Positions 38,883-61,049 of a stretch of DNA of 64,000 bases are shown here, in pieces. The first letter of the stretch is position 1, and the number at the start of each line of letters is the position of its first letter. The stretch covers positions 1,216,001-1,280,000 of the forward strand of contig CBDCDC010000002.1 in the NCBI GenBank assembly GCA_965215195.1, in the 5' to 3' direction. The DNA comes from Candidatus Latescibacterota bacterium (GTDB lineage: Bacteria > Latescibacterota > UBA2968 > UBA8231). Under the pieces are notes generated by a model. That model was not told where the DNA came from. It did no database searches and saw only the letters and a program-made list of their open reading frames with translations. The position numbers and the translations under genes are program-made.

Positions 38883-39075
38883 TACGTCCCTTTTGACGCA
38901 CTTGCTCCAAGCTATTGTAAAAACGTGAGATAGAGGGCAAATAGGGAGTTAGGTGCGTCGAAAGGGTGCAATAGAAGCGCGATTCGGCATTTTGTATAAA
39001 ATACCCTAATTTCTTGTAACTCTTTGTCTATCAGTCAGTTACGTCTTTTTAAGTCGGTTTGGCACGGAATGTGCT
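38883..39075 (+). promoter_or_regulatory. sigma54 promoter module 3
   Basis: TACGTCCCTTTTGACGCA, TGCGTCGAAAGGGTGCA (38954), IHF-consensus TATCAGTCAGTTA (39029), TGGCACGGAATGTGCT at 39060-39075. Confidence 0.88.
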
Positions 39076-39487
39076 ATTATAGTAGGTGAGCACGAAAGTA
39101 AGCCGTTGTTGGCTTCAGACGCTAAGGCGCAGGGGCCGACGGGCAGGCTTTCCATCCACCCCATAAGAGGAGGGAAAGATGAACCGCTTTTATCAACATC
39201 CGCTCTCGCCCGCTTGGAGAACGGCTCGCTCTCGTGCCGCGTTGGTAGAGCCATCGTCAATGTCGAGAAGGCATGTAGCCATGACCCTGCACAAATCCGT
39301 GATATACGGCCCGGCCATCGAAGCCGCGCAGGCATTTGCCGCTGTCGGCTGCTTTTCCTTCTCGCGCCATGACACGCCTTTGCCAGCACCATTTAGGGCT
39401 ACCCGTCAGGAGGCCCTTTCGCGACGCTCTTGGCGTCACCATTTGGTTCAATAGAACCTGTCACTTACTACTCAAGGAATTATAGCT

Positions 39488-39628
39488 ATGACCGCTCTGC
39501 ACAAACCCGAACGCGCCACCTACGGCCAAGCCGTCGAGGCCCAAGCGGAATATCGCTTCACCATCTGCTCCAGCGATCCCAAGGCAGCTCTCTGCTGGGA
39601 TGATGGAGACCTCCTGTGCTGCCCGTAA
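39488..39628 (+). CDS. Cys-rich precursor peptide 1: MTALHKPERATYGQAVEAQ-AEYRFTICSSDPKAALCWDDGDLLCCP (46 aa)
   Basis: Hand translation; AAGGA RBS; leader shared with three paralogs. Confidence 0.88.
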   Translation: MTALHKPERATYGQAVEAQAEYRFTICSSDPKAALCWDDGDLLCCP

Positions 39629-39855
39629 GAAGGCCTTGGCGTCCTCACTTGGTTCGATAGAACCTCTCACTTGGGAGGTAGCTGAAAAATCGACCAAGCT
39701 ATGGACGGGCGGAGTGGACCAGAGGTCCTATTGACCCCGGTCCACTCCGCTTGGCTTCAGGCTCAATGATCGTGGGCCTGTAGTCTACTCCTGAGTGGGC
39801 GGCCGAGTCGGTCGCCTGCCCGCTAAATCCCAACCACATACCCAAGGAGGATGTT

Positions 39856-41030
39856 ATGAACAAGCTAAAGCATTTTATCGTGGTAGCCGGCCCTATGGTG
39901 CTGTTGGCTGGGTGCGGTGAGGACCAACTCGAAAACCGGGTGGAGATTACCCCCCGGCGGCTGACTTGGCATTCGACGAGGCAGTCATCAAGGACCGGGA
40001 CATCTACTTCCAAATGCCCGAAGACGTCGCTTTGGGGACGATCAGCTATACATTGGTAGATGCCAAGGGGGACCTCATCGTTGTGGACTCTGTTCAGTGG
40101 ACGATTTTCCAGATCAATGCGGAGGGCCAATACTTGCGGCAGATCGGCATGCGGGGAGGAGCCGAAGGCGAGTACTTTTATGTCCTCAAGATGCTACTGG
40201 CCCCCAATGACGATCTCTATATACACTGCATCGGAGAAAGCGCGAAGTATCTAGTCTTTGCCGGGGACTCATATAAGTTCAAGCGGGAGGTGCCCGACCC
40301 TAACTCCGCGCTCATTGATCATGTTGTGATTACCGAGGGAGGCAATATGTACGCCTCGCAAGTGGACGTCATTGATGGAGGCTCTGCCGGGGTGCAAGAG
40401 GATGGAGCACACGCTCTATTCCGCTTTGACGACCACTTCAATAAGGTCGCTAGCCTGTATCCGGTCGAAGACAAGCGAACAGGACGGACGTTGAACCGCT
40501 ACCACAACACAATTCTCACTCCTAGGACGGGGGGTGGCTTCTACTTCATGTATCCCACCGCCTACGATATCCATCAGTACAGCGAGCAGGGTGAGTTGGA
40601 ACAGACCCTATTTAGTACCTATTGGTCTAAGCACCGAAACGGGATCAATCCCTTGCCCGCCAGCTTGGATCCGCTCGCTTGGACTCCCAAGCACGCGGAG
40701 TGGCTTGCCGAGTACATCTTCCCTGTCCAACTTTTTGAATGTGATCCCGACTTGCTGGTACTCATGCAAGTAAGGAAGGAGGTCGACGGCGAAGTGAAAC
40801 GCTATATGAACCTCCTGTACAAGGACGGCCATTCGGTAGCCGACGGCATTAGAGTCCCCGCAAATCATAGGCTCCTGACGGTTGACGGCCGTGAGTTGTA
40901 TTTCGTGGTAGAGGGCGCGTTCGACGAGGAGACCGGCGAGGTGGGCGATCCGCATGTGGCCGTCTATCGGTTCAATGATCGCGCAGGGGCCGGCAAGTTA
41001 GCGTTCAGCCGCTCGCGGGGCGGCCAGTAG
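39856..41030 (+). pseudogene. 6-bladed beta-propeller lipoprotein 1, -1 frameshift in C6 tract (39950-39955)
   Basis: Lipobox LLAGC in 39856 frame; body continues in 39966 frame; a C7 tract restores ITPPAADLAFDE as in paralogs. Confidence 0.85.
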
Positions 41031-41046
41031 AGGAAGGGACATCACC

Positions 41047-41682
41047 ATGAATTCGCTAGCCAAAGCACTCCTGCTATTGTCCCTCGGACTCGGCTCGGTC
41101 GCCTTGGCTCTGCACCAAGACAACACCGACAGACGCGACGAGTTGGAGGCCCTTAATGAGCACCTAAAAGATTTAAAGACAGTCCAGTGGAAATACGAGG
41201 TCAACGCCGTCCTGAAGAGTAAACTACACCGCAAACTGATTGAATCGATGGAATTCGGCCGATTCACCAAATTCGACGAGTCGGCCGTTAGGGCCGACAA
41301 GCCGTTTGTCGTCGTCGTATCGACGAGCCGGACATGTGGAGCGTGCCTGTTTGCCCAACTCGACCAGTGGAAGGAGGCTATGACTCAAAGGAATGTCTCT
41401 TACGGCAAGTTGCTGCTGATCGTAGGCGACGCCAACGAGCGCATTAAGCAACAGATTGCCATAAAGCACAAGGTGGGCATCGTGCCCTTCGCCTTCACTT
41501 TCATGGCCGAGCGGGATCTTGAAGAGTTGATTTTCCAGTCGGACGACCGGTCAGCGGTGCCCGTCTCGTTTGTCGTGGACGAAGCCTTCCGTGTCCTCAA
41601 CTGGCACTATAGCGACAAAGGGGACGAAAAAGCTACGGCGCAGTGCATCCAAGACTGGCTGGACCGCTATTTCACCTCTTAA
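41047..41682 (+). CDS. Exported thioredoxin-fold (CGAC) protein, copy 1
   Basis: N-terminal hydrophobic segment, coiled coil, VVVVSTSRTCGAC, VPVSFVVD (cis-Pro loop-like). Confidence 0.75.
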   Translation: MNSLAKALLLLSLGLGSVALALHQDNTDRRDELEALNEHLKDLKTVQWKYEVNAVLKSKLHRKLIESMEFGRFTKFDESAVRADKPFVVVVSTSRTCGACLFAQLDQWKEAMTQRNVSYGKLLLIVGDANERIKQQIAIKHKVGIVPFAFTFMAERDLEELIFQSDDRSAVPVSFVVDEAFRVLNWHYSDKGDEKATAQCIQDWLDRYFTS

Positions 41683-41709
41683 ACCGCGAAGGCGACCGGG
41701 CATCTCAGT

Positions 41710-42400
41710 GGTCTTTCAATTAAATTTTTTGATTTAATCGCCTCGTTGGTCGTAAGGTGAGATTATCTCAGTCCAGTTACCAGTGCTGGCCTTGTGCCCT
41801 TTATTTATCTCTCCCAACCACCAAGTAAGGAGGGATAAAGATGAAAGAGCCAAGACCAGCGTTGGAGAATTTGTGTTGTCTCAATGCCCAATGCAAGGCT
41901 TACGGCCAACGCGGCCAAGCCAACCTGACGGTGCATAAGACCTATGGAGCCGACCGGATTCGTTATCTACGCTGTCAGCGCTGCGGGGATGAATTCAGCG
42001 AGCGAAAAGGCACGGCGTTGTTTAATTGCAAAATCCGGGAAGCGCAAGCCGTCTCGGTGATTGAGCGTCTAGATCGGGCCTGTGGCTTGAATGCCACGGC
42101 GGCCTTGGTCGGGGTATCCAAAGATGCGGTTCGCCACCTGCTTCGCGTGAGCGGACCGGTCAGCTGTCAACTGCATGACTGTCTGGTGCGTGCCTTGCAT
42201 CCGATGGCGCTCCAATTTGATGAGAAATGGGCCTATGTGGCGAAAAAACAACGACACTTGACCCCCATGGACGATCCGAGTGAACGGGGTGATTCTTAGG
42301 ATGCCAACAGTTTGGATCCGCAGAGCAAATTGCTGGTGTCGCTGGTGCCCGGTCGCCGTACGAGCACGACCCTTCATCAAGTGGTGGCGGATGCGGCGGA
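41710..42400 (+). mobile_element. IS1-family transposase remnant
   Basis: Zn-ribbon CLNAQC..RYLRCQRCG..FSE, HTH, LQFDEKWAYV; in-frame TAG at 42297; truncated at about 42400. Confidence 0.8.
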
Positions 42401-42473
42401 ACTCCGATTTCTTGTAACTCTTTGTTTATCAGTAAGTTATGATTTTGTAGATCAGTTTGGCACGGAATGTGCT
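42401..42473 (+). promoter_or_regulatory. sigma54 promoter module 4 (enhancer sites lost)
   Basis: TATCAGTAAGTTA IHF-like site and TGGCACGGAATGTGCT at 42458-42473; upstream part replaced by IS1 remnant. Confidence 0.8.
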
Positions 42474-42889
42474 ATTGCTATAGTGAGCACGAAAGTCAGC
42501 CGTTGTTGGCCCCACCCGCTACGGCGCAGAGGCCGACGGGCAGGCTTTCCATCCACCCAATAAGAGGAGGTGAAAATGAACCGCGTTATCAACATCCGCT
42601 CTCGCCTGCTTGGAGAACAGCTCGCTTTCGTGCCGCGCTGGTAGAGCCACCGTCCAGGTCGAGAAGACCTGTAGCCATGACCCTGCACTCACTCGTGTGC
42701 ATCAAGCCACGACCCGGCCCTCGAAGCCGCGCAGGCATTTGCCGCTGTCGGCTGCTGTTCCTTCTCGCGCCATGACACCGCCTTTACCGGCACCACTTAG
42801 GGCTATCCGTCAGGAGGCCCTGTCGCGACGCCTTTGGCGTCACCCTTTGGTTCGATTGAACCAGTCACTTACTACCAAGGAGCCTACGC

Positions 42890-43030
42890 ATGATCGCTCT
42901 GCACAAACCCGAACGCGCCACCTACGGCCAAGCCGTCGAGGCCCAGCACAACGAATACAACGTGGTCAGGTGCGACCATACGGGCGTCGTCTGCTTGGGG
43001 AACTCAGGCAGCTATCGCTGCTGCATTTAA
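42890..43030 (+). CDS. Cys-rich precursor peptide 2: MIALHKPERATYGQAVEAQ-HNEYNVVRCDHTGVVCLGNSGSYRCCI (46 aa)
   Basis: Hand translation; AAGGAG RBS. Confidence 0.88.
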   Translation: MIALHKPERATYGQAVEAQHNEYNVVRCDHTGVVCLGNSGSYRCCI

Positions 43031-43276
43031 GGACGCCCTTCTGCGGCAGCCTCGGCTGACATCGGTTCGACAGCACCCTACTTGAGGGGTTACTGAAAAA
43101 TCAGTCAGCCATTGATCGGCGAGTGGACCATGGGTTCCATTGACCCCGGTCCACTCCGCCGGTCTTCGGGTGCTGAACGGTTGAAGATAGTTCCAGTAGC
43201 TACTCCTTGATGCACGGCCACATCCAGTCCGTGAATCTGCCAAGATGCAACCCCAACTCTCCACAAGGAGGATGTT

Positions 43277-44386
43277 ATGAAAAATTTGCTGCTGTTCATC
43301 GTGGTTTTCGGCCCTGTGGTGCTGTTGGCCGGGTGCGGCGATGATCCACCTAAACGCCGAGTGGAGATCACCCCTCCGGTGGCCGAACTCACGTTCGACG
43401 AGGCGTTAGTCAAGGATAGGGAAATCCACTTCCAAATGCCCGAGGGTATCGTTTTGGGCACGATCGGGGACCTCGTGGTCGATTCCAAGGGCAACCTCAT
43501 CATCTTAGATTTTGCCCAAGGGACGGTTTTCCTAGCCGATGCCGAAGGCAACTATCTGCGGCAGATCGGAGCGCGGGGAGGGGCTGAGGGCGAGTACCTT
43601 TCTATTATCGAGGTACTGCTAGCCCCAAATGACGATCTCTATACTTGGAGTATGGGAGAAGGCCTCAAGTACATGGTCTTTTCCGGCGGCTCTTATGAGT
43701 TTAAGAGAGAGGTTCCAGATCCTAATTCCCAGTACATCGATCATCTCGTGGTCTCCGCCGGCGGCCACATTTATGCCTCGCAAGTGGATTTGCGAATGGA
43801 CGGTATCCACGCCCTGTTCCGCTTTGACGACCACTTCAAGGTGATCGGCAACCTGTATCCGGTCGAAGACCAAAGGACCGCGACGGCCCTGCACCGCTTC
43901 CACAACACCATCCTCACCCCCAAGACCGGCGGTGGCTTCTACTTCATGTATCCGACCACCTACGAGATTCACCAGTACAGCGAGCAGGGCGAGTTGGAAC
44001 AGACCCTGTTTAGCACCTACCAGTCCAAGCACCGGGACGGCATCAAGCCCTTTCCCGCCGACTTAGACCCGTATGGTTGGAACCCCAAAATCGAGGCGTG
44101 GTTCGCGGAGCACATTGTCCGTCACCGACTTTTCGAATGCGGTTCCGACTTGCTGGTACTTGTGCAATACAGGCGGGAGGTTGGCAACAAGTACGAGTAC
44201 TATCTAAACTTCTTGTACAAGGACGGCCATTCGGTGGCCGATGGGATTCGTGTGCCCGCCAAGCACATACCGCTGACGGTCAACGGCTCTGAGTTGTACT
44301 TTGTGGTTGAGAGTGAGTTCAATGAAGCGACGGGCGAGGCGGACGATCCGCACATAGCCGTCTATCGGCTCAAGTCGGCTAGGTAG
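43277..44386 (+). CDS. 6-bladed beta-propeller lipoprotein 2
   Basis: AAGGAGG RBS, lipobox LLAGC, NHL-like VDSKGNLIILD and YLRQIGARGGAEGEY. Confidence 0.88.
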   Translation: MKNLLLFIVVFGPVVLLAGCGDDPPKRRVEITPPVAELTFDEALVKDREIHFQMPEGIVLGTIGDLVVDSKGNLIILDFAQGTVFLADAEGNYLRQIGARGGAEGEYLSIIEVLLAPNDDLYTWSMGEGLKYMVFSGGSYEFKREVPDPNSQYIDHLVVSAGGHIYASQVDLRMDGIHALFRFDDHFKVIGNLYPVEDQRTATALHRFHNTILTPKTGGGFYFMYPTTYEIHQYSEQGELEQTLFSTYQSKHRDGIKPFPADLDPYGWNPKIEAWFAEHIVRHRLFECGSDLLVLVQYRREVGNKYEYYLNFLYKDGHSVADGIRVPAKHIPLTVNGSELYFVVESEFNEATGEADDPHIAVYRLKSAR

Positions 44387-44511
44387 CGTTTAGCCGTTCA
44401 CAGAGCGGCTAGTAGAAAAAGTTCGTAGGACGAAGCCTTCCATTAGGTTGGGAGACGAAATCACATGCTATATCTCAAGCTGCCGAAAGGCAGTTCACTA
44501 AGGAGGATACG

Positions 44512-45498
44512 ATGAACAAACGGATGCTTTTTATCGCAATGGCTGGCATAGGGCTGCTTGGGGTTGACCCGGCCAACGCCGAGGCCGCAGCGGAACGAGG
44601 GGCCGACGAGCGCTTCACCGGCAAGGAGCAGGTCGTTGCGCTGCCGGGCGGTACCCAGATGACGTTTGTGTGGATTGAGCCGGGGACGTTTCAGATGGGA
44701 GCGCAGCTTCCAGAAGACGAGTCGCTGAAAGAGTTAGAAAGAACCGTGCGTTACGTTGGTTCCCTGCCGGTGCATGAGGTGGAGATTAGTGCGGGGTTCT
44801 GGTTGAGTAAGTATGTGGTTACGCAGGAGCAGTGGGAAGCAATAATGGGAACCACGCCTTGGCGCGACGAAGACAACATCGACCGAGAGTTGGTGCAGTC
44901 GAATCCGGCGCATCCGGCCGTGTATATTTCTTGGCACGACGCCCAAGCGTTGATACACCAGCTCAATAGCGCCGCCGGGGAGGACGTGTATCGGTTGCCG
45001 ACCGAGGCCGAGTGGGAGTATGCCTGCCGGGCAGGCACTTCGACCCTGTGGTCGTTTGGCAACGAAGAGGGCGCGTTCTCTACCTTGTGGACGTATCACG
45101 CGGATAAGGGTTCGCTCGCCCACTATGCGTGGTATCGGAACAATACGTTGGGTAGGAATGAGGAGTATGCTCATGCGGTGGGACAGCATCGTCCGAATGC
45201 GTGGGGCTTACATGATATGCACGGCAATGTGTGGGAGTGGGTACAGGACTGGTATGACATCGACTATTACAAGCATTCGCCGCGGGTGGATCCTTTAGGC
45301 CCTCCATCCGGCTCTTTAGGCTCTGGTCCTAACTCTTTACGCTCTAAGATGAGGGACGACGCTACCGACTCTTTACGCGTCATGCGGGGGGGGGACTTTA
45401 TCACCCCTGTCATATACACACAATCGGCGTACCGCATATTCAAAGAGCCTTACGAAGGTTACGCTACTATTAGTGTACGCCTTTTGAAGATGCGTTGA
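44512..45498 (+). CDS. FGE-sulfatase (SUMF1) domain protein, secreted
   Basis: Signal peptide; PGTFQMG, YRLPTEAEWEYACRAG, PNAWGLHDMHGNVWEW, RVMRGG. Confidence 0.92.
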   Translation: MNKRMLFIAMAGIGLLGVDPANAEAAAERGADERFTGKEQVVALPGGTQMTFVWIEPGTFQMGAQLPEDESLKELERTVRYVGSLPVHEVEISAGFWLSKYVVTQEQWEAIMGTTPWRDEDNIDRELVQSNPAHPAVYISWHDAQALIHQLNSAAGEDVYRLPTEAEWEYACRAGTSTLWSFGNEEGAFSTLWTYHADKGSLAHYAWYRNNTLGRNEEYAHAVGQHRPNAWGLHDMHGNVWEWVQDWYDIDYYKHSPRVDPLGPPSGSLGSGPNSLRSKMRDDATDSLRVMRGGDFITPVIYTQSAYRIFKEPYEGYATISVRLLKMR

Positions 45499-45557: not shown

Positions 45558-45634
45558 GCGACGAGGCGTTCGTTGAGGATTGGGACATCCACTTTCAAAT
45601 GCCCAAAGACGTCGGTCGGCAAGAGAGCGTTTAG
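45558..45634 (+). pseudogene. Internally deleted beta-propeller remnant
   Basis: DEAFVEDWDIHFQMPKDV (N-terminal part) joined directly to GKRAFSRL* (C-terminus). Confidence 0.7.
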
Positions 45635-45670
45635 CCGATTGTAGGGCTCGCAGAGAAGGAGATCATTGCC

Positions 45671-46306
45671 ATGAATTCGCTAGCAAAAGCGCTTCTGGTG
45701 CTGTCTTTCGGCCTCGGCTCGGTCGCCTTAGCCCTGCACCAAGACAACGTCGACAGACGCGACGAGTTGGAGACCCTCAACGAGCGGCTGGAACACTTGG
45801 AGACCGTCCAATGGAACTACGAGGTCAATGCCGCCCTCAAGGAGAAGCTACACCGCAAGCTGATCGAATCGGTGGACTTGGGCCGATTCGCCAAGTTCGA
45901 CGAGTCAGCCGCCGGGGATGGCCAGCCGTTTGTCGTCGTCGTATCGACGAGCCGGACATGTGGAGCATGCCTGTTTACCCAACTCGCTCAGTGGAGGCAG
46001 GCGATGGCGCACAGGGGCATCTCCCACGGCAAGCTACTGCTGGTCGTAGGCGACGCCAACGAGCACATCAAGCACCAAATCGCCATAAAGAGCAAAGTGG
46101 ACATCGTGCCGTTTGCCTTCACCTTCGTGGCCGAGCGAGAGCTCCAAGCACTGCTGTTTCAGTCCGAGGCCCGGTCGTCGGTGCCGGTCTCGTTTGTCGT
46201 GGACGACGCCTTTCATGTCCTCAACTGGCACTATAGCGACAAAGGAGACGAAGAAGCGACAGAGCAATGTATCCAAGATTGGCTGGAACAGTACTTCACT
46301 TCGTAA
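45671..46306 (+). CDS. Exported thioredoxin-fold (CGAC) protein, copy 2
   Basis: Close paralog of 41047-41682. Confidence 0.75.
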   Translation: MNSLAKALLVLSFGLGSVALALHQDNVDRRDELETLNERLEHLETVQWNYEVNAALKEKLHRKLIESVDLGRFAKFDESAAGDGQPFVVVVSTSRTCGACLFTQLAQWRQAMAHRGISHGKLLLVVGDANEHIKHQIAIKSKVDIVPFAFTFVAERELQALLFQSEARSSVPVSFVVDDAFHVLNWHYSDKGDEEATEQCIQDWLEQYFTS

Positions 46307-46326
46307 ACGGCGATTCCGCGACGCCA

Positions 46327-48093: not shown

Positions 48094-48195
48094 GGCGACT
48101 CCTAAGACGAATGAACGAGACTGAGCGTAACGATTGAGCAAAACAAGCGCAACGTACGCACGATTGGCCACATCGGCGATTCCCTTTTAACGCAC

Positions 48196-50281: not shown

Positions 50282-50316
50282 GGCAGCCCGTAAAGAAGGA
50301 GAAAGAGACCATTGTC

Positions 50317-52455: not shown

Positions 52456-54186
52456 ATGATAGTCAAGGAATTTGCCATGCGCTTCGCCCGGTACATCAAA
52501 CCGTACTGGTGGCAAAGTTCAATCGTATTCGCCTTCATGGTCTTGGCAACGGCCAGTTCGCTCGCCTTCCCCTATATCCTGATGGTCCTCATCGACGAGG
52601 CCCTGCCCGACGAGGACTACTATTTATTGGGCATCCTGCTGGCCACGCTATTCGGTATCATCGTCTTGAACATAATCAGCGTTTTTATTGCCGAGTATCT
52701 GTATCGCTGGGTCGGCAACCTCGTCGTGTTTGAGATGCGGAGCGAGTTGTTCAGCCACCTGCTGCGCCTGCCGCTAAGTTTCTTCAAACGCAACAAGACC
52801 GGGGATATCGCTCACCGGCTCAACAACGATGTGCAGATCGTCCAGAAAACGCTCACTTCCGGCGTACTGAAGCTCATCAACAGCGTGCTGACTTTGGTCA
52901 GTTTGGGGGCGGTGCTGATATGGCTAGACGCTCCCCTTTTCTTTGGCCTGAGCCTGCTCGTGCCCTGCTTCATCGTGAACCTCAAGTACTTCCAGCCCAA
53001 AGTAGGCAAGGTGGCCGAGGCAACCCAACACAAGACTTCGGATATACTGGGGTTTTTTATCGAGCGTTTCGACAACATCAAACTCGTCCAGTCGTACAAC
53101 ACATACCGACACGAGAGCGACAAGTTGGGCCGACGACAGAGTGAGTTGTTCGATCTGGAAATGCGTAGCACTGCGTTGAATCTTTCCGCTGGTTCCATCG
53201 CGTCCTTTATCATGTCCTTGGCTCCTGTTGTCATCCTCGGTTGGGGAGGGCATCAAGTCATGCAGGGCGCACTCGGCTTGGGGGCGCTAATCGCCTTTTT
53301 CCAATACTTCATGCGCATTTTCGGACCCTTGGAGAGCCTGAATCAACTGTACATAGATTGCGTCCGGGCGTCGGTTTCTCTGCGGCGAATTGTGGAATTC
53401 ATGGACGTACCGGCGGAGGTTGACGCAGAGCCGGAGCGGGCCAAACCCTTCTCGTTCAAGAATAAGATAGTGTTCAAAGGCGTGGATTTTGCCTACAACG
53501 GGCACCCTGTACTCAGCCGTTTTGATTTGGAGATTGAAAAGGGCAAGACCTACGCGCTCGTCGGGGCGAGCGGTTGCGGCAAAAGCACGGTTGTCGATCT
53601 GTTGTGCCGTTTTTACCAGCCGCAAAAAGGCGAGATCGCCATAGACGACGCGCCTTGCCGGGCCTTTGGTCTGGGCAAGTACCGGGACCGCATCGGCTTG
53701 GTGTCGCAAGAAGCGCAACTCTTCCGCGATTCGGTGCTCGAAAACATACGCTATGGCCGGTTGGAAAGTTCCAAAGAAGAGATCGAACGCGCGGCCGAGG
53801 AACTCGATATCAACGGTGCAGCCATCCACGCGTCCGAGGACTCCTTGGCGACGGTATGCGACTCCAAAGCCAACCTGTCGGGTGGACAGAAACAGCGGAT
53901 AGCCCTAGCGAGGGCCGTGCTGAAAAACCCCGAGATCATCGTACTGGACGAGGCGACTTCAGCTCTCGACTCGGAGAGCGAGGAGAAGCTGTTGCGCCGG
54001 CTCAAGGGCCAAGCCGACGACAAGACGGTCATCATCGTCAGCCACCGGCTCAGTGCCGTTAGGGAGGTCGATGAGATCGTCTGCATGGACGAGGGGAAAA
54101 TTGTCGAGAAAGGCACTCATGCCGAATTGATGGAGAAAAAAGGCCACTATTGGGAACTGTTCAAAACCCAGATTGCGAACAATTAA
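52456..54186 (+). CDS. ABC exporter, fused permease-ATPase (no C39 peptidase domain)
   Basis: TM domain, GASGCGKST, LSGGQKQRIALARA, LDEATSALD, SHRLS. Confidence 0.95.
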   Translation: MIVKEFAMRFARYIKPYWWQSSIVFAFMVLATASSLAFPYILMVLIDEALPDEDYYLLGILLATLFGIIVLNIISVFIAEYLYRWVGNLVVFEMRSELFSHLLRLPLSFFKRNKTGDIAHRLNNDVQIVQKTLTSGVLKLINSVLTLVSLGAVLIWLDAPLFFGLSLLVPCFIVNLKYFQPKVGKVAEATQHKTSDILGFFIERFDNIKLVQSYNTYRHESDKLGRRQSELFDLEMRSTALNLSAGSIASFIMSLAPVVILGWGGHQVMQGALGLGALIAFFQYFMRIFGPLESLNQLYIDCVRASVSLRRIVEFMDVPAEVDAEPERAKPFSFKNKIVFKGVDFAYNGHPVLSRFDLEIEKGKTYALVGASGCGKSTVVDLLCRFYQPQKGEIAIDDAPCRAFGLGKYRDRIGLVSQEAQLFRDSVLENIRYGRLESSKEEIERAAEELDINGAAIHASEDSLATVCDSKANLSGGQKQRIALARAVLKNPEIIVLDEATSALDSESEEKLLRRLKGQADDKTVIIVSHRLSAVREVDEIVCMDEGKIVEKGTHAELMEKKGHYWELFKTQIANN

Positions 54187-54202
54187 AAAAAGGGAGACCA
54201 GG

Positions 54203-56140
54203 ATGAATACCAATGAGAAGTTGCAGACGCTCGACTTTACCCGTTTGACCGGACGCGGGGTCAAGGTCGCGGTAGTTGACAGCGGTATTGAACCCAATCA
54301 TCCCAAGATCGGCCCTATTGCCGGCGGAGTTGGTTTATATGCGCTTGCCGAGGGCGGTATCCAACGCGAGGACGATTTCTCTGACCGGGCCGGTCACGGT
54401 ACGGCCTGCGCGGGCATTATCCGCAAACTGGCCCCGGAAGCCGAACTCTACGGGGTACGCGTTTTTGACGAGTCTCTGACCACGGATGGGCAGTCGCTGG
54501 TCGCAGCCGTTGCTTGGGCCATAGAAGAGGGCATGGACGTAGTCAATCTCAGTTTAGGGACGATTGACCCCGCGTACAAGAGGCCCTTGGCGGAGATATG
54601 CCGCAAGGCCGTGGAAGCCAATCTGATTCTGGTGGGTTCCCAGCACAACGAGGGCATGGAAAGCTATCCAGCGGAATTAGCCGACGTAATCGGCGTCACT
54701 TGGGGAAAAATCTACGACCGCTACGGGTACTACTACCGGCGCGGGCAGGCCATTGAGTGCGTGGCGCGGGGCGATCAGCAGCGTCTGTGCTGGCTGGACG
54801 GAGGAGAGACGATCACCGGCGGAACCAGTTTTGCCGCGCCCCACATAGCGGGGATTGTCGCCTTAATCCGCCAACGCTTTCCCGGAGCGGGGTTGACCCA
54901 AGTACGGGAGATTTTGGCGGCAAATGCCTTAGAGTCGGAGGGGCCTGTCGCGTCGGATATCGCTGTCGAACGGCCGGGTTTTCCCAGCTACGAGTGGATC
55001 GACCGGGCGGCCCTGTATCCGTACAACAAGGAAATGCACGCGCTGGTGCGCCACGCGAAGCATTTGCATTTCACCATCGCTGGCATCGCCGATCCGGTCG
55101 GCAAAGGTCTGGTCGGCAAGGACGCCGGCGAGGCTATTGGCGTTGAGCCGTTAGGTGTGCGCATTGTCCCCAAACTCGAGGACGCGCTACGGGGAGCCGA
55201 TACCCTCGTGTTGGGGTACGTCGATCAGCTATCTCAGTTGAGCAAAAAGGACTTGCTGCGCGAGGCCATACAGACGGCGTTGGAGCGGGGGCTCAATGTG
55301 TTCAGCTTCCTAGCGGTTGATCCAGAGACCTACGCCGACTTGTACGATTTGGCGCAGAGCAAGGGGTTGCGTTTGGAGTTCCCGGATTTCGATTTCGCCG
55401 ATGTCCAAAGGTGCCTTGCAGCCCAAGGCTCCGAGCGCACCGTGGATGTGCCGGTGGTCGGGGTTTTCGGCACGAGCTCCCAACAGGGCAAGTTCACCTT
55501 GCAACTCGCATTGCGGCAAAAGCTGATTGAGCAAGGATACACAGTTGGTCAACTGGGCACCGAGCACCATTCGGCCCTGTTCGGGATGGATTTTTCCTTC
55601 CCCATGGGCTACGCCGCGCCCAGAGACCTGCCGTTGCAATACTACGGTCCGTACTTAGACCACAAGATGCGCGAGATTAACGCGGCGAAAAAACCGGATA
55701 TCATCTTAGTCGGCTGTCAGTCGGGCACCATACCCTATGATGTCGCCAACCACAACTCCCATACCGAGCCGTCGATCCACTTCCTGTTGGGGACCAAACC
55801 AGACGCCTGCATTTTAGTGGTCAACAGCACGGATTCGGATGCGTATATCCAAGACACCATGGATGGCATACGCATATTGGGCAAAGCCCCGGTCGTATTG
55901 CTGGCGATGAGCGACAAGGAGAAACACGCCCGGTCGGTCTATGGCAAAACTTGGGTTTCCTCTCGTCAGATGAGCGAGGGTGAGATAAAGGGCCACTTGG
56001 AGCGCTTAGAGGCTTCGTTTGGCTTGCCAGTGGTGGCGATTGTTGCCGAGGAGGGGCAGCAGCGAATGGTCGATATTGTCGTCAACCATTTTGCCGCAGA
56101 GAGTCGGCCAGCGTCCGAAGAGATTAAAAAGGCCGGGTAG
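54203..56140 (+). CDS. S8 (subtilisin-like) peptidase fused to DUF1611-like P-loop domain
   Basis: Triad VAVVDSGI / GHGTACAG / GTSFAAPH; C-terminal PVVGVFGTSSQQGKFTLQL..GTE..PDIILVGCQS; no signal peptide. Confidence 0.85.
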   Translation: MNTNEKLQTLDFTRLTGRGVKVAVVDSGIEPNHPKIGPIAGGVGLYALAEGGIQREDDFSDRAGHGTACAGIIRKLAPEAELYGVRVFDESLTTDGQSLVAAVAWAIEEGMDVVNLSLGTIDPAYKRPLAEICRKAVEANLILVGSQHNEGMESYPAELADVIGVTWGKIYDRYGYYYRRGQAIECVARGDQQRLCWLDGGETITGGTSFAAPHIAGIVALIRQRFPGAGLTQVREILAANALESEGPVASDIAVERPGFPSYEWIDRAALYPYNKEMHALVRHAKHLHFTIAGIADPVGKGLVGKDAGEAIGVEPLGVRIVPKLEDALRGADTLVLGYVDQLSQLSKKDLLREAIQTALERGLNVFSFLAVDPETYADLYDLAQSKGLRLEFPDFDFADVQRCLAAQGSERTVDVPVVGVFGTSSQQGKFTLQLALRQKLIEQGYTVGQLGTEHHSALFGMDFSFPMGYAAPRDLPLQYYGPYLDHKMREINAAKKPDIILVGCQSGTIPYDVANHNSHTEPSIHFLLGTKPDACILVVNSTDSDAYIQDTMDGIRILGKAPVVLLAMSDKEKHARSVYGKTWVSSRQMSEGEIKGHLERLEASFGLPVVAIVAEEGQQRMVDIVVNHFAAESRPASEEIKKAG

Positions 56141-56174: not shown

Positions 56175-56415
56175 ACTGGATTGAACTGATCGCTGGCGGT
56201 CTTCTGCTGTTAGACATTTGGCCGCGCAGCAATGCGTTGGTCGTGTTCGGGCTATTGGTGGTTTTCAGCACGGCACTGGGCATCAATATGTACCGCGGCA
56301 ACGATGTGACGTGCGGTTGTTTTGGGGGCGACGGAGGAGCTTCGCTGACTTGGACTTTGTTGCGCGACCTACTTTTGGCGGGGGAGCTATGGTGCTGCTG
56401 GTGCGGAAGGAGCAG
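56175..56415 (+). pseudogene. MauE/DoxX 3' remnant
   Basis: WIELIAGGLLLLDIWPRSNALVV...TCGCFGGDGG near-identical to 37142-37567; 5' half missing. Confidence 0.8.
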
Positions 56416-56482
56416 AAAAATACTACACGACGGAGCCACCATTCAAGATGGAATCCAACGGATGTGCCGGAGGTTATAGACC

Positions 56483-56562
56483 ATGGATAGAAGAAGGCTG
56501 GAACACCGCATTAAGGAGAGGGTCGTCAAGGCACTAGAACTCGACATTGCACCTAGCGATAT
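56483..56562 (+). pseudogene. ACP N-terminal remnant
   Basis: GGAGG RBS; MDRRRLEHRIKERVVKALELDIAPSDI parallels the ACP at 36397; interrupted by IS630-like fragment. Confidence 0.65.
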
Positions 56563-56770
56563 AGCAATCCTAAATCATTTAAGAGCTAATGTATATTGCA
56601 TCAATTTTGGAAAATGGAAGTATTTTTTTCGTCGAATGCCCTTTACGAACAGGTCTTTGATCGGTTCAAAACAGGTCGTCGACAGCGCATGGGTACGAAC
56701 AAAGGTCTTGCCTTGTAACCAGATGTCCTCGACCGGATTTTCTTGCGGGGTATACGGGGCCAATCGCGTA
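56563..56770 (-). mobile_element. IS630-family transposase C-terminal remnant
   Basis: APYTPQENPVEDIWLQGK matches the IS630 PxYSPELNPIE.W motif. Confidence 0.75.
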
Positions 56771-56780
56771 CCGTCTAGGC

Positions 56781-56903
56781 CGCGTCATACGGGGCGGCGA
56801 CTTTATGGCTCCTGTCATATACCTGCGGTCAGCGAGCCGCAGGGCTAGTGAACCCGACGAACGTGATTATAGCACTGGTGTGCGCCTTTTGAAGATGCGT
56901 TGA
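56781..56903 (+). pseudogene. FGE-sulfatase gene 3' remnant
   Basis: RVIRGGDFMAPVIY...TGVRLLKMR* parallels the end of 44512-45498, including the downstream UTR. Confidence 0.75.
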
Positions 56904-56969
56904 GCTTTGTGCTCGTTACAAGGATGAGGAGGAGGCATTCGGCCGCTAGTAGGGAAGGAGATCATTGCC

Positions 56970-57099
56970 ATGAATGCCGCTAAGGTGCCCGTTTCGTTTG
57001 TCGTGGACGACGCCTACTGGCACTATAGCGACAAAGGAGACGAAGAGGCGACGGAGCAGTGTATCCAAGACTGGCTGAACCGGTACTTCACTTCGTAAA
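56970..57099 (+). pseudogene. Internally deleted CGAC thioredoxin-like gene
   Basis: MNAAK joined to VPVSFVVDDA..WHYSDKGDEEATEQCIQDWLNRYFTS*. Confidence 0.8.
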
Positions 57100-57121
57100 C
57101 GGCGATTCCGCAACCCGCAGA

Positions 57122-58882
57122 TTAGTGTCCCGCCGCATCGTCCACCGCTTGATACGCAACCATCTCCCAGCCGTGAAACACCACCGCCAAGCCAATATGC
57201 CGCACCGACGGGTGGCGGCGGCGCAGGGACGGGTCTGCCAAATAGCCGCGCACCTGAAGCACGGCCTCCTGCACCTTGTCCGCCACAACGGATTCGTCGA
57301 GCGACTCGCTTCGTTTCACATACTTCAGTTCCAACACATAGCCGAAACCCACGTCAGGGTATTGGGCGAGGAACGGCTCCAAATACAAATCCGCGTACCC
57401 CTTGTTCAGTTCGTACTCCGAGTGCAGTAGAAACTGATCCACCAGGCTCAAGTGGGCGGCGACAAAACCGTGAATCACCTTCTCGCCATCCATGTAGTCG
57501 CGGATGCCGGTTTGCTCGGCGAGGGCATCGCGCAAAAAATCCAAGGCCGGCCGCCAAGCGCCGTCGTAGGCCATCTGGCGCATCAGACGGGAGAAGGTGT
57601 ACCCATCGACGGAGAACACGTCCACATCGTCGTAGGCATCGCGCAGGTAGCCGTACATTAGCCGCTTGACCGTTTGATTGGGAATGCCCAGCCGGGGCAC
57701 TCCGTGCGCCACGGCGCGAATGCTGAGCAGGCCGAAGTAATACAGCAGGGACAGGAAGTTTTCGCGTTGGTCTAACTGTTCTAGCGGAAAACTGATTTGA
57801 ATGTCACTCTCGGCGGTCTGCTCGCCGATGATGTGGCGCAGCAGGTCGAAGTTGCCGTTGAGTTGGCGGTTGACCGTCAGCAGGTGGCGCAACTTGCCGT
57901 AGTCGATGCGCACGTTGGTGTCGAGCAATTCCCGCGGTCCCCGTTTGTTCGGCATGGATTTGTGTAAAAAGTAGAGGACCATGTCGGTGTTGTAGAGGTC
58001 GCCCTCGGCCTCATCGGCGAAGCGATAGCCGTTGTACCACTCGCGCATCACCGCCAGCACGGCTTCGACATCCTGATTGAACACGCCGCAGTCGCGGTAT
58101 AGCTCCAGCACCTCCCGCACCTCGGCCTCGGTGAAGCCGAGCATGTTGTTGAACTCTGGTTCCAAGCTGATGTTGCTGCCGATATTGAAGCCGCTGGTGA
58201 CGTCGTCCATGGTAATCGGCGACACGCCGGTGATGAACAACCGCTCCAAGCCGCCGCTTCGCCCGGCTCCGGCCTTCAGCACGGCAAAAAAATTGCGATA
58301 GAAACCACCACCGTGGGTGAAGGACTGGTAGGCTTCGGCCCCGCGATGCGCCAGCACGGTGTTGGCAAAATTGTCGTACTCGTCGATGAGCACATACAGC
58401 GGAATGCCATGGTCACCCGCGTACAGAAACAGCGCGGCGAGCTTGGCGTCAATGGAGGGCGGCGAGAGAATGCGTTGTCTCGCCTCTTGGGGAAACAGAT
58501 CTCGATTGCGCCTGAGTGCGTGGTCGAGTTCCAAGTGACAGTACATCTCAAAGCGTTCCCGCAGGGTTTCTAAGGTGTCATCGAACGCCGAAAAGTCAAA
58601 GCGCAGGACGACGTAGCGATGGCGGTTTTCCGTCGGCTGCCGCCCCAAATACGTGCCGCCGAAGATAGCCTCAAATTCATCGGCGCGGGTGCGGTCGTAG
58701 TAGTTTTCCAGCAGGGACACCCAGCAGGACTTGCCAAAGCGACGCGGACGAATCAGAAAGACGTAGCGTTCCTCTTCTAAGGCGTGGACAAAGCGGGTCT
58801 TATCGACGTAGAGGCGGTTTTCCAAGCGGATGGCGCGGAAATCAGCCCAACCGTAGGGAATGCGCGGGTAGGATGCGGCCAT
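57122..58882 (-). CDS. AAA-ATPase-like / PD-(D/E)XK nuclease protein, copy 3
   Basis: RPRRFGKS, LIDEYD, GYADL..ELKY; 586 aa. Confidence 0.9.
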   Translation of the reverse strand: MAASYPRIPYGWADFRAIRLENRLYVDKTRFVHALEEERYVFLIRPRRFGKSCWVSLLENYYDRTRADEFEAIFGGTYLGRQPTENRHRYVVLRFDFSAFDDTLETLRERFEMYCHLELDHALRRNRDLFPQEARQRILSPPSIDAKLAALFLYAGDHGIPLYVLIDEYDNFANTVLAHRGAEAYQSFTHGGGFYRNFFAVLKAGAGRSGGLERLFITGVSPITMDDVTSGFNIGSNISLEPEFNNMLGFTEAEVREVLELYRDCGVFNQDVEAVLAVMREWYNGYRFADEAEGDLYNTDMVLYFLHKSMPNKRGPRELLDTNVRIDYGKLRHLLTVNRQLNGNFDLLRHIIGEQTAESDIQISFPLEQLDQRENFLSLLYYFGLLSIRAVAHGVPRLGIPNQTVKRLMYGYLRDAYDDVDVFSVDGYTFSRLMRQMAYDGAWRPALDFLRDALAEQTGIRDYMDGEKVIHGFVAAHLSLVDQFLLHSEYELNKGYADLYLEPFLAQYPDVGFGYVLELKYVKRSESLDESVVADKVQEAVLQVRGYLADPSLRRRHPSVRHIGLAVVFHGWEMVAYQAVDDAAGH

Positions 58883-58984
58883 GGCGGCTCCTCAAACGAG
58901 GGGATGGTCCTGAGCGTAACGATTGAGCGCAACCAGCGCAACGTGTGCATGGCTGCCGCAGCGGCGAGCGCACTTTTAACGCAC

Positions 58985-59177
58985 TACGTCCCTTTTGACG
59001 CACTTGATCTAACCTATTGTAAAGACGTGAGATAGGCGCAAAGTGGAGCATTAGGTGCGTCGAAAGGGTGCAATCACAGCGCGATTCATCATCTTGTATG
59101 AAATACTCCGATTTCTTGTAACTATTTGTCTATCAGTCAGTTATGTCTTTTTAAGTCGGTTTGGCACGGAATGTGCT
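58985..59177 (+). promoter_or_regulatory. sigma54 promoter module 7
   Basis: Enhancers at 58985 and 59056; TATCAGTCAGTTA; TGGCACGGAATGTGCT at 59162-59177. Confidence 0.88.
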
Positions 59178-59590
59178 TATATAGTAGGTGAGCACGAAAG
59201 TAAGCCGTTGTTGGTCTCAGACGCTACGGCGCAGAGACCGACGGGCAGGCTTTCCATCCACCCCATAAGAGGAGGGAACAATGAACCGCTTTTATCAACA
59301 TCCGCTCTCGCCTGCTTGGACAACGGCTCGCTCTCGTGCTGCGCTGGTAGAGCCATCGTCAAAGTCGAGAAGGTATGTAGCCATGAGCCTGCACAAGTCC
59401 GTGATCTACGGCCCGGCCATGCGAAGCCGCGCAGGCATTTGCCGCTGTCGGCTGCTGTTCCTTCTCGCGCCATGACAACGCCTTTACCGGCATCACTTAG
59501 GGCTACCCATCAGGAGGCCCTGTCGCGACGCCCTTGGCGTCACCACTTGGTTCGATAGAACCACCTACTTATTACTCAAGGAGCATAGCT

Positions 59591-59722
59591 ATGATCGCTC
59601 TGCACAAGCCCGAACGCGCCACCTACGGCCAAGCCGTCGAGGCCCAGTATGAATACCAGAACATGGTATGCGACGCATATGATGCTAGGTGCTGGGATCC
59701 GGGGCACAGAAGGTGCTGCTAG
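59591..59722 (+). CDS. Cys-rich precursor peptide 4: MIALHKPERATYGQAVEAQ-YEYQNMVCDAYDARCWDPGHRRCC (43 aa)
   Basis: AAGGAG RBS; C-terminal part of track ORF 59534-59722. Confidence 0.88.
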   Translation: MIALHKPERATYGQAVEAQYEYQNMVCDAYDARCWDPGHRRCC

Positions 59723-59933
59723 GGAGAACAAACTTCGCGACGGCCCGGCTGTCACCACTTGGTTCGATAGAACCTCTCATCCTTGACTAAGCGGGCCGTT
59801 GACTCTGGCGAGTAGGCCGTGGGTCTCAGCGAACACGGTCTACTCCGCCGGCCTTCGGACTCTGAAAGATCGTAGTTCCTTTAGTCCATTCATTGGTATG
59901 GGTCAGACACCAACCATTCACAGGGAGGATGCT

Positions 59934-61049
59934 ATGAACAAGCGGATACATTTTATCGCGGGCGTCGGCACTATGGCGCTATGCGCCGGGTGCAGCGACG
60001 TGCCAGAAGGCCGGATAGAGATTACCCCGCCAGCGGCCGATCTTGCCTTCGACGAGACGTTCGTCAAGGACCGGGACATTCATCTCAACATGCCCGAAGG
60101 CGTCGTTTTGGGCAGAATCGGCCACATGGTAGTCGATTCCAAAGGCAATCTCATCGTTAGGGACCCTATTCAGGATATAGTTTTCCAGACCGATGCTGAG
60201 GGCCATTACTTGCGGCAGATCGGGGCACGAGGGGGAGCAGAGGGCGAGTACTTCATGGTCCTCAAGATACTGCTGGCCCCAAACGACGATCTCTATATCC
60301 ACAGTGCAGGGGAAGGCATGAAGTATCTAGTCTTTTCCGGCGACTCATATACGTTCAAGCGGGAGGCTCCAGACCCTAACCCTGCGTACGTTGACCATGT
60401 CATATTCACCGCAGGAGGCAACATATACGCCTCGGAAGTGGACAGCGAATACGCCCTGTCCCGCCTCGACGACCACTTCAATAAGGTGGACCGCATGTAC
60501 CCTGTCCAAGACACGCGGACAGGACAGGCGCTGAACCGCTTCCACAACACCGTCCTTACTCCCAAGAGGGGAGGTGGCTTCTACTTTATGTATCCGACCT
60601 CCTACGAGATTTACCAATACAGCGAGCAGGGCGAGTTGGAACAGACCTTGTTTAGCGACTACCGCTCCAAGCATCGGGACGGGATCAAACCCTTTCCCCC
60701 CAACTTGAACCCGTACGATTGGAATCCCAAAATTGAAGCGTGGTTCGCCGAGCACATCGTCCGCAGCCAGCTTTTTGAATGCGATCCCGACTTGCTGATC
60801 CTCAAGCAATACAGGCGGGAGGTGGGCGGCGAGTGGAAATACTATCTAAACATCCTAGACAAGGACGGCCATTCGATCGCCGATGGGATCAGCGTACCCG
60901 CCAAGCACACACCGCTGACGGTTGACGGCCGTGAGTTGTATTTCGAGGTAGAGGGCGCGTTCGACGAGGAGACCGGCAAGGTAGGCGATCCGTATGTAGC
61001 TGTCTATCGGCTCGCCAATGATCGCAAAGTAGCCTTTAGCCGCTTGTAG
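59934..61049 (+). CDS. 6-bladed beta-propeller lipoprotein 4
   Basis: GGAGG RBS, lipobox LCAGC, paralog of the other three. Confidence 0.88.
   Translation: MNKRIHFIAGVGTMALCAGCSDVPEGRIEITPPAADLAFDETFVKDRDIHLNMPEGVVLGRIGHMVVDSKGNLIVRDPIQDIVFQTDAEGHYLRQIGARGGAEGEYFMVLKILLAPNDDLYIHSAGEGMKYLVFSGDSYTFKREAPDPNPAYVDHVIFTAGGNIYASEVDSEYALSRLDDHFNKVDRMYPVQDTRTGQALNRFHNTVLTPKRGGGFYFMYPTSYEIYQYSEQGELEQTLFSDYRSKHRDGIKPFPPNLNPYDWNPKIEAWFAEHIVRSQLFECDPDLLILKQYRREVGGEWKYYLNILDKDGHSIADGISVPAKHTPLTVDGRELYFEVEGAFDEETGKVGDPYVAVYRLANDRKVAFSRL

Follow-up and report, generated by a model that had tools for sequence, protein, structure and literature searches.

We analysed 64,000 nucleotides of contig CBDCDC010000002.1 (positions 1,216,001 to 1,280,000 of the forward strand; hereafter the window) from assembly GCA_965215195.1 of a Candidatus Latescibacterota bacterium, an uncultured organism of soil or sediment type. 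Judging from the S8 protease encoded in the window, which is 91-92% identical to that of Candidatus Latescibacterota metagenome-assembled genomes, the latter appear to be its closest named relatives. Between positions 38869 and 61049 the window contains four repeated cassettes, each encoding a small cysteine-rich precursor peptide and a beta-propeller lipoprotein (Table 1). The order within a cassette is a sigma-54 promoter, a leader of ~400 nt, a precursor of 43-46 aa, a conserved hairpin, a propeller of the DUF5128 type and usually a CxxC protein, which lies downstream in three of the cassettes; cassette 2 alone has an extra FGE-sulfatase-fold gene. Self-comparison of the window revealed segmental repeats at 38869-41689, 42401-44430 (resumed at 45614-46334), 48185-50986 and 58971-61070. 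Since these are segmental duplications of 2-2.8 kb with 70-87% DNA identity, the cassette pattern is not due to chance. A reading made earlier from the letters alone (the sequence-only reading) had placed a paralogous propeller some 160-250 bp behind each precursor, and the gaps of 227, 246, 161 and 211 nt in cassettes 1-4 agree with this. The propellers of the window share 63-69% pairwise identity, and a tblastn search of the whole 6.13-Mb genome found four places for propellers and four for peptides, with none further.

The precursors consist of a near-invariant leader of 19 residues (mean distance 0.13) and a hypervariable remainder (mean distance 0.66), the core comprising 24-29 residues with 4 or 6 cysteines. 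None of the four has a meaningful Pfam or NCBIfam match, and NVEALA (PF14055) is not matched at E <= 10. A profile search called 61 peptides in public data, with a near-invariant leader and at least four core classes. Among the 60 parsed public cores, 42 have four cysteines and 12 have six (54/60); the unparsed peptide has four by manual count, giving 55/61, and the six peptides that depart from this rule have aberrant, apparently frameshifted C-termini. All intact peptides of the collected loci (14/14) have 4 or 6 cysteines. A Glu, one Cys, one Gly and a terminal Cys-Cys are the invariant positions of the core. The even number of cysteines suggests that the mature peptide is disulfide-bonded, and the two kinds of periplasmic CxxC protein and the MauE/DoxX protein of the locus point the same way.

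The propellers exceed the Pfam DUF5128 (PF17170) cut-off of 22.9 bits with 30.9 bits for propeller 2 and 34.9 bits for propeller 3, and in the genome search all four places in the window do so. In distant full-length relatives, DUF5128 is the sole Pfam domain (8/8 scanned). Modelling of propeller 2 with AlphaFold2 from 70 family sequences gave a predicted local distance difference test (pLDDT) value of 87 and a predicted TM-score (pTM) of 0.86, with 24 strands in six four-stranded blades. The top Foldseek match of this model is the exported protein BF0058 of Bacteroides fragilis (4raa; E 3.9e-14, TM 0.65-0.67), at a sequence identity of ~12%, followed by NHL domains. The description of all four as lipoproteins holds for propellers 2, 3 and 4, where an L-A-G-C or C-A-G-C lipobox, read from the sequence, precedes the mature part in frame. 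In propeller 1, the reading frame is shifted by 1 nt within six consecutive C at ~39950-39955, and the lipobox lies in the shifted frame. Public contigs from 4/4 runs (two studies) cross the site without gap or difference, three of these runs possibly coming from the same sample as the window assembly. Because contigs from two studies show the identical C run, the frameshift is probably real rather than an assembly error and propeller 1 is probably a pseudogene; its orthologue in the related genome G002 is in frame.

The near-invariant scaffold stretches and all five sets of variable segments were found in the propeller alignment as the sequence-only reading had quoted them. To assign faces we used strand and loop topology, the top comprising the D-A and B-C loops with the adjoining strand halves and the bottom the A-B and C-D loops. 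By this topology all five segments, which had been proposed to be loops on one face, lie on the top side of blades 1-3 of the confident model, in D-A or B-C loops or at the start of the inner (A) strands. Mapping of the variable residues at large gave a less exclusive picture. Hypervariable columns, defined by an entropy of >= 2 bits and numbering 41 across 70 sequences, are distributed 32:9 between the top and bottom halves against a background of 200:122 (Fisher p=0.025). They occupy 13/37 positions of the inner A strands compared to 10/112 in the other strands (p=4e-4), and 25/41 are in blades 1-3 (p=0.03). From these counts, the variable residues cluster at the top entrance and in the central channel of one half of the propeller, though not exclusively.

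To avoid circularity, selection on the five segments was measured on 27 codons defined on the window in five paralogue pairs of other genomes. In the pooled pairs, non-synonymous divergence (dN) is 0.236 in the segments versus 0.055 in the rest of the gene (4.3-fold), the ratio of non-synonymous to synonymous changes is higher in the segments (odds ratio 2.8, p=1e-4), and segment dN relative to the synonymous divergence (dS) of the whole gene is 1.07. Propeller 1 and its G002 orthologue, which stand beside identical peptide cores, differ in the segment codons by no non-synonymous and three synonymous changes, with 28.5 non-synonymous changes in the remainder of the gene. Between propeller 3 and its counterpart G007b, 26% of the peptide core has changed, and so have 24% of the hypervariable columns. 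At entropy-defined sites, omega (dN/dS) is 0.5-2.3 between paralogues and 0.14-0.25 between orthologues, with 0.12-0.27 for the rest; the propellers of the window cassettes have overall values of 0.21-0.28. The rates of paralogues versus orthologues thus indicate sites that are constrained within a lineage and change after duplication, like specificity determinants.

Divergence along the cassettes is strongly mosaic. Between window cassettes, dS is lowest in the leader codons (0.08-0.17), reaches 0.34-0.60 in the CxxC gene and 0.64-1.05 in the propeller, and is saturated (>1) in the peptide core. The non-coding 5' leaders of cassettes 1 and 3 are 84-93% identical, and the branch point of contigs from public runs falls precisely on the leader/core boundary (39543). 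Given the dS mosaic and this branching, core and propeller form one old, diverged module inside younger or homogenised flanks. A maximum-likelihood tree resolves four propeller clades, and the class of the peptide follows the clade in 12/13 pairs. The exception comes from genome G004, whose class-II peptide precedes an array in which the first two propellers belong to a different clade and the third to the matching one; in G025, a degenerate class-II peptide does not match the propeller clade either. Distances between peptide cores are correlated with those between propellers (Mantel r=0.52-0.57, p=2e-4), and with distance in the hypervariable columns once the rest of the protein is removed (partial Mantel r=0.28, p=0.005), the reverse partial test being nil (r=0.06). 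The proposal that the segments co-diversify with the core is thereby sustained in part, by the clade match, the partial correlation and the frozen segments beside identical cores; physical linkage could by itself produce much of the congruence.

We detected the propeller family in 8/30 other genomes of the genus and in 0/30 genomes outside it. Pairing was surveyed in nine genomes with 24 propeller genes and 15 peptide genes (14 intact, one degenerate); the gene upstream of the propeller is an intact peptide gene in 13 cases and a degenerate one in a single case, and ten propellers have none. The strict one-to-one pairing claimed by the sequence-only reading does not survive, with ten of 24 propellers lacking a peptide, one of 14 intact peptides lacking a propeller, one clade mismatch and propeller 1 probably a pseudogene. 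The loci of G026 and G019 have a simple order of BtrH_N-like protein, peptide, propeller, CxxC protein, redoxin, ATP-binding cassette (ABC) exporter, S8 protease and sensor module. In G025 there are eight propellers and three intact peptides, with four FGE-fold genes between consecutive propellers and gaps too short for a peptide gene. One peptide is followed by three propellers in G004, G008 has two propellers and no peptide, and G018 has one paired and one unpaired propeller; propeller-FGE pairs occur in all four of these genomes. The unpaired propellers of G008 and G018 have kept the sigma-54 element, the peptide-bearing part of the cassette being deleted. Orphan propellers are under purifying selection in their non-variable part (dN/dS 0.15-0.27). 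The cognate S8/TIGR04066 protease gene has no match in G025 (one contig, 96% complete), and G004, G018 and G008 gave only S8 paralogues at 30-58% identity plus a fragment. The genomes with the largest arrays would thus be unable to mature peptides with the cognate enzyme.

The sigma-54 -24/-12 motif TGGCACGGAATnTGC has seven matches in the window, all on the plus strand and all at seven upstream elements. These elements precede the four cassettes, the redoxin-ABC-S8 operon and two resistance-nodulation-division (RND) efflux operons (24670 and 32377). Their -24 GG and -12 GC at consensus spacing, along with an adjacent activator bearing GAFTGA, mark them as predicted sigma-54 promoters. Five of the elements also have a conserved 8-base site (TGACGCAC) 166-167 bp upstream of the sigma-54 motif. 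Through the shared promoter element, the peptides, propellers, exporter and efflux pumps would be joined in a regulatory unit, which suggests that the RND operons and the peptide locus constitute one regulon. Downstream of cassette 4 are genes for a family-5 solute-binding protein and a HAMP/PAS histidine kinase, followed just outside the window, behind the kinase, by an NtrC-type response regulator with a GAFTGA motif. This trio adjoins the locus in all relatives examined.

The ~400-nt 5' leader between the sigma-54 motif and the peptide start is conserved in 13 cassettes of eight genomes. It has an invariant Shine-Dalgarno sequence and an ATG opening a short upstream open reading frame (ORF) whose frame is not kept, as well as a degenerate second precursor-like ORF with a weak peptide-profile score (E 0.11-2.3). 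RNAalifold gave a covariation term of only -0.76 on these leaders, which are too similar in sequence for a judgement on structure. A GGTTC-N4-GAACC palindrome stands just before each peptide start, and in cassettes 1 and 4 a second copy follows closely behind the stop codon of the peptide. The hairpin between peptide and propeller has a 13-bp stem, is kept in 13/13 cassettes and shows compensatory double changes at 8/17 predicted pairs. As a possible transcript end or attenuator, it could make expression of the propeller independent of that of the peptide. Scans for sigma-70 promoters and terminators over 38800-44500 did not rise above shuffled controls.

The putative maturation and export genes lie between and upstream of the cassettes. 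In the S8 protease-TIGR04066/DUF1611 fusion, the S8 part scores 142.4 bits with the QhpE model NF049966 (cut-off 165; E 1e-41), and residues 278-641 score 131.2 bits with TIGR04066 (cut-off 200; E 4e-38), so that by score the TIGR04066 domain is a relative and not an equivalog. The D, H and S columns of the S8 triad are invariant in 23 sequences. We did not class the protein as QhpE-type, its score being below the cut-off and no radical SAM partner having been found: the best genome match to the radical SAM model TIGR04068 reaches 91 bits (cut-off 500) at C2:434359, far from the locus. The acyl-carrier-like protein scores 17.2 bits with TIGR04069, below the cut-off of 70, and higher with general acyl carrier protein (ACP) models. 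No Pfam or NCBIfam family matches the 352-aa protein, which has a language-model score of 0.98 to clusters with BtrH_N in 17-26% of their members. The CxxC protein of the cassettes has 211-213 aa, an N-terminal membrane helix and a CGAC motif, and aligns with the redoxin at the CxxC and the cis-Pro at 22% identity. Its language-model score is 0.96 to clusters auto-named redoxin/AhpC, none with a common Pfam family; it has no Pfam or NCBIfam match, a PDB sequence search gave nothing below E 0.7, and the AlphaFold2 model from eight sequences is of low confidence (pLDDT 44.7). The FGE-fold protein was considered as a maker of formylglycine in the peptides and rejected, since it is not in every cassette and its C-terminal motif, inspected by eye, lacks the Cys pair that marks catalytic FGE.

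The S8/TIGR04066 fusion has more than 600 relatives. We fetched 78 of their loci, mostly from Latescibacterota and Gemmatimonadota, with single loci from KSB1, Melioribacteraceae, Rosettibacter and Bacteroidetes. Near the S8/TIGR04066 gene, an ACP-like gene is found in 61/78 loci (behind it), an ABC exporter in 37, a BtrH_N-like gene in 30, a redoxin in 19, a rhodanese in 16, a MauE gene in nine and a propeller in three, all of the same genus. Related peptides are therefore made without a propeller, which would be a genus-specific addition to an older peptide-maturation module. The module of S8/TIGR04066, ACP-like and BtrH_N-like proteins without a radical SAM enzyme, present at 78 loci at least, appears to be undescribed. 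Longer peptides of 67-83 residues with at least four cysteines and a related leader motif, and without a propeller, occur at the S8/TIGR04066 loci L058, L062, L068, L069, L085, L088 and L106, whose hosts are Latescibacterota and Gemmatimonadota; they look like a broader undescribed peptide class.

Taken together, the genes and motifs point to a locus under sigma-54 control that encodes several alleles of a small, exported, disulfide-rich peptide and resembles loci for ribosomally synthesized and post-translationally modified peptides (RiPPs) or bacteriocins. We tentatively favour, at a probability somewhat short of even, a polymorphic exported disulfide peptide accompanied by a peptide-binding, immunity-like lipoprotein, with orphan immunity genes. 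An immunity-like role is preferred because the propeller is in general dispensable for maturation, has a variable patch, travels with the core, exists as promoter-bearing orphans and multiplies where producer genes are lost. From the gene anatomy, the promoters, the fold, the location of and selection on the variable sites, and the distribution, we infer processing, binding, protection and regulation as follows. The precursor has a near-invariant leader and a variable core with 4 or 6 cysteines. The cytoplasmic S8/TIGR04066 protease would cut off the leader, the ABC transporter would export the core, and the membrane-anchored CxxC proteins with MauE/DoxX would oxidise it in the periplasm. The propeller most likely binds the peptide, with specificity conferred by the hypervariable inner-strand and top-loop residues of blades 1-3. 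In the manner of LanI proteins, it would protect the cell by capturing peptides of its cognate class at the membrane. Peptide-less propellers with a sigma-54 promoter of their own would act as orphan immunity genes against the peptides of neighbours, and the binding-protein/kinase/NtrC module would activate the cassettes together with the export operon and the two RND pumps. More doubtful is a system of recognition under balanced polymorphism, in which dozens of alleles would each be matched by a propeller specificity code, orphans would be acquired protection, and a peptide-sensing sigma-54 circuit would include the RND pumps.

Strict pairing is contradicted by the ten propellers, of 24 in the nine genomes, that have no peptide gene, and by the largest propeller arrays in genomes without the cognate maturation operon. 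Several results weigh against the immunity-like reading. G002 has a peptide without a propeller, and propellers are present in just 3/78 S8/TIGR04066 loci. An essential cognate immunity gene would not readily be expected to carry a frameshift such as that of propeller 1, whose peptide gene is intact. On the structure, nine of the 41 hypervariable columns are on the bottom half and 16 are in blades 4-6, and the comparison of top with bottom loops alone (16/124 versus 2/49) is not significant (p=0.10). The segment dN/dS of ~1 does not demonstrate positive selection. Physical linkage alone predicts much of the peptide-propeller congruence, and the partial Mantel signal may only reflect joint saturation of two fast-evolving characters. 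A complex prediction for propeller 2 (residues 21-369, 70-row alignment) with the 46-aa precursor rather than the mature oxidised core (13-row alignment) scored 0.02 in a run without controls and weighs neither for nor against binding.

The alternative that survives best, which we consider unlikely, is that the variable face recognises something else than these peptides, such as a glycan, a foreign protein or a phage component, and that the propeller is merely co-transcribed and co-duplicated with the peptide gene. Linkage would then explain the congruence, and such a role would suit propellers that persist and diversify under purifying selection without peptides or a maturation operon, in a DUF5128 family that has no known ligand. 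It sits poorly with variable sites that are frozen where the peptide core is identical, with divergence that starts at the leader/core boundary and spans core and propeller as one module, and with the confinement of the propeller family to the genus that has this peptide family (8/30 versus 0/30 genomes).

A secreted, pherotype-like signal, with the propeller as cognate co-receptor or presenter to the sensor module in a strain-specific autoinduction, is improbable. This idea draws on the peptide-type binding protein and sigma-54 activator fixed beside the locus in all relatives examined, on the sigma-54 promoter of every cassette, and on the conserved leader, variable core and conserved flanks, which recall pherotype loci. 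However, the propeller has no signalling domain, and genomes with very different cores share 76-92% identity in the binding protein and kinase. Propellers are moreover kept or expanded in genomes without the cognate export operon, and several alleles per genome would be unusual for a pherotype system.

We give a similarly low probability to the propeller being a peptide-specific folding or carrier partner that, with the CxxC protein, templates disulfides or escorts the peptide and has no part in immunity. The small cross-linked subunits of quinoprotein amine dehydrogenases, which are matured with MauE or a QhpE-type protease, assemble with propeller subunits, and both MauE and a QhpE-like S8 protease are present here; the peptide-propeller-CxxC unit recurs in 3/4 window cassettes and in G026, G019, G002 and G018. 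Against this stand the ten of 24 propellers that have no peptide to fold, the eight propellers of G025 without an S8/TIGR04066 match, and the 75/78 related maturation loci without a propeller. It is extremely improbable that the small ORFs, short as they are, should be non-genic and that recent tandem duplication followed by neutral decay should alone have produced the pattern; this is already contradicted by the conservation pattern, namely the near-invariant leader, the invariant Cys/Gly core scaffold, the even cysteine number in 14/14 local and 55/61 public copies, the Shine-Dalgarno sequence, sigma-54 promoter and covarying hairpin around each ORF, and the propeller dN/dS of 0.21-0.28.

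The immunity-like reading has precedents in known systems. LanI lipoproteins such as NisI and SpaI give lantibiotic producers immunity by capturing the peptide at the membrane surface. Like them, the propeller lipoproteins stand beside the structural peptide gene and are predicted to be co-regulated with exporters through a two-component system; unlike them, they have an unrelated propeller fold, a diderm host, probable disulfide peptides instead of lanthipeptides, and many alleles and orphan copies, capture being a proposal here. Polymorphic toxin-immunity loci share with our locus a product with conserved N-terminal and variable C-terminal parts, an adjacent variable partner, orphan partners, a deeply diverged module set between conserved flanks, and a propeller-like candidate protector in the periplasm, as in Tsi1, a partial beta-propeller immunity protein (PMC3391265). 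Here, the product is a peptide of ~25 residues with a putative ABC transporter and not a large protein toxin with a secretion apparatus.

For maturation, the closest parallels are Cys-rich peptide systems of Firmicutes, which comprise a radical SAM protein (TIGR04068), TIGR04066, the acyl-carrier-related TIGR04069, a subtilase and an ABC transporter (PMC10731318, PMC4573289). With our locus they share the subtilase and the ABC exporter, the Cys-rich precursors with their leader and, in the form of a TIGR04066-like domain and an ACP-like protein, two further components. The locus differs in having no radical SAM maturase, in the fusion of protease and TIGR04066, and in TIGR04066 and TIGR04069 scores below the cut-offs, and it adds putative CxxC oxidoreductases, MauE, rhodanese, a BtrH_N-like protein, propeller lipoproteins and predicted sigma-54 control. 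In the literature searched, the Firmicute TIGR04066/radical SAM clusters were met in genome-mining papers only. Quinohemoprotein amine dehydrogenase maturation involves the protease QhpE, an ABC exporter, a small cross-linked subunit and a propeller subunit. The locus resembles it in the QhpE-like S8 protease, the ABC exporter, a Cys-rich leader peptide, a periplasmic propeller and MauE, whereas its QhpE score is below the cut-off, its cores are hypervariable, and it has no radical SAM gene, haem subunit or conserved Trp/Cys quinone site.

Bacteroidales DUF5128 genes are often beside small peptides of the NVEALA family. As with these proteins (BF0058, 4raa), our propellers pass the Pfam cut-off, are six-bladed and exported or lipoproteins, and occur in multi-copy arrays; they differ in the ~12% identity and in peptides without an NVEALA Pfam match. 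Literature searches on DUF5128, DUF1611, TIGR04066 and Clo7bot, with supplements outside the search, returned none on such cassettes or such a system, the word NVEALA was not found in the literature searched, and '6-bladed beta-propeller' gave nothing relevant. Among the matches listed for Latescibacterota RiPPs, the papers were general surveys by title and abstract. If the immunity-like reading is true, it would provide a first function, specific peptide capture, for the large uncharacterised DUF5128 propeller family (as programmable peptide binders, should the balanced-polymorphism system hold), and describe a disulfide-peptide system in Latescibacterota, of which we know of no cultured representatives. 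The 61 peptides and 79 propellers in public data would offer a natural series of matched alleles.

Table 1. Features of the window, with positions counted from its first letter.
Feature	Position	Strand	Remarks
Promoter elements of RND operons	24450-24674; 31819-32186		
RND operon, HlyD-family and AcrB	24670-29009		
RND operon, split AcrB	32377-35535		
Acyl-carrier-like small protein	36319-36669	+	Pfam PP-binding E 8e-7; NCBIfam ACP models E 1e-10
Rhodanese	36666-37142	+	Pfam Rhodanese E 1e-15
MauE/DoxX membrane protein	37097-37567	+	Pfam MauE E 3e-29
352-aa protein, BtrH_N/peptidase C39-like	37569-38624	+	language-model features only
Cassette 1 upstream element	38869-39487	+	TGACGCAC site 38894; sigma-54 -24/-12 motif 39060-39075; ~400-nt conserved leader
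Precursor peptide 1	39488-39628	+	46 aa; 19-aa leader, 4-Cys core
Propeller lipoprotein 1	39856-41030	+	broken by frameshift
CxxC (CGAC) protein 1, putatively thioredoxin-like	41047-41682	+	membrane-anchored
Cassette 2 upstream element	42401-42889	+	5' end truncated; sigma-54 motif 42458
Precursor peptide 2	42890-43030	+	46 aa
Propeller lipoprotein 2	43277-44386	+	369 aa; copy modelled; Pfam DUF5128 30.9 bits
Secreted FGE-sulfatase-fold protein	44512-45498	+	Pfam FGE-sulfatase E 1e-42
CxxC protein 2, putatively thioredoxin-like	45671-46306	+	
AAA-ATPase-like/PD-(D/E)XK gene	46327-48171	-	Pfam; interleaved with cassettes
Further AAA-ATPase-like/PD-(D/E)XK copies	29018-30883; 57122-58882	-	
AAA-ATPase-like/PD-(D/E)XK fragment	35477-36217	-	
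Cassette 3 upstream element	48185-48797	+	sigma-54 motif 48373
Precursor peptide 3	48798-48938	+	46 aa
Propeller lipoprotein 3	49100-50281	+	393 aa; Pfam DUF5128 34.9 bits
CxxC protein 3, putatively thioredoxin-like	50317-50958	+	
Promoter element of maturation/export operon	51290-51707	+	sigma-54 motif 51483
Membrane-anchored redoxin (CxxC)	51708-52424	+	Pfam Redoxin, AhpC-TSA; ResA-like E 2e-8
ABC exporter	52456-54186	+	permease and ATPase, without peptidase domain; Pfam ABC_membrane, ABC_tran
S8 protease-TIGR04066/DUF1611 fusion	54203-56140	+	645 residues; signal-less, cytoplasmic
Cassette 4 upstream element	58971-59590	+	sigma-54 motif 59162
Precursor peptide 4	59591-59722	+	43 aa
Propeller lipoprotein 4	59934-61049	+	371 aa
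Family-5 solute (peptide)-binding protein	61228-62817	+	Pfam SBP_bac_5
HAMP/PAS histidine kinase	62821 to window end 64000	+	
~400-nt 5' leaders, cassettes 1-4	39086-39487; 42483-42889; 48398-48797; 59187-59590		
Hairpins between peptide and propeller	39712-39747; 43121-43156; 49026-49059; 59810-59845		
GGTTC-N4-GAACC before peptide start	39445-39458; 42849-42862; 48756-48769; 59549-59562		
GGTTC-N4-GAACC after peptide stop, cassettes 1 and 4	39651-39664; 59761-59774		

The AAA-ATPase-like genes of the window have 85-89% protein identity and are interleaved with cassettes in relatives too; they may have mediated the cassette duplications. Additional copies at 64-68% identity are found elsewhere in the genome. 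At 56176-57105, between the S8 gene and an AAA gene, the window retains pieces of a decayed cassette, with a MauE fragment at 56176-56421 (89% to 37318-37564), an FGE-fold fragment at 56781-56921 and a CxxC-protein fragment at 56984-57105. At Rfam gathering thresholds, a tRNA at 1-69 is the only match in the whole window. An inverted repeat of 156 nt with 95% identity joins 12074-12229 and 30903-31058, the latter near the end of the first AAA-ATPase gene, and a 490-codon ORF on the minus strand (15514-16986) contains internal tandem repeats at 15533-16884 with a period of ~99 nt and 68-76% identity.

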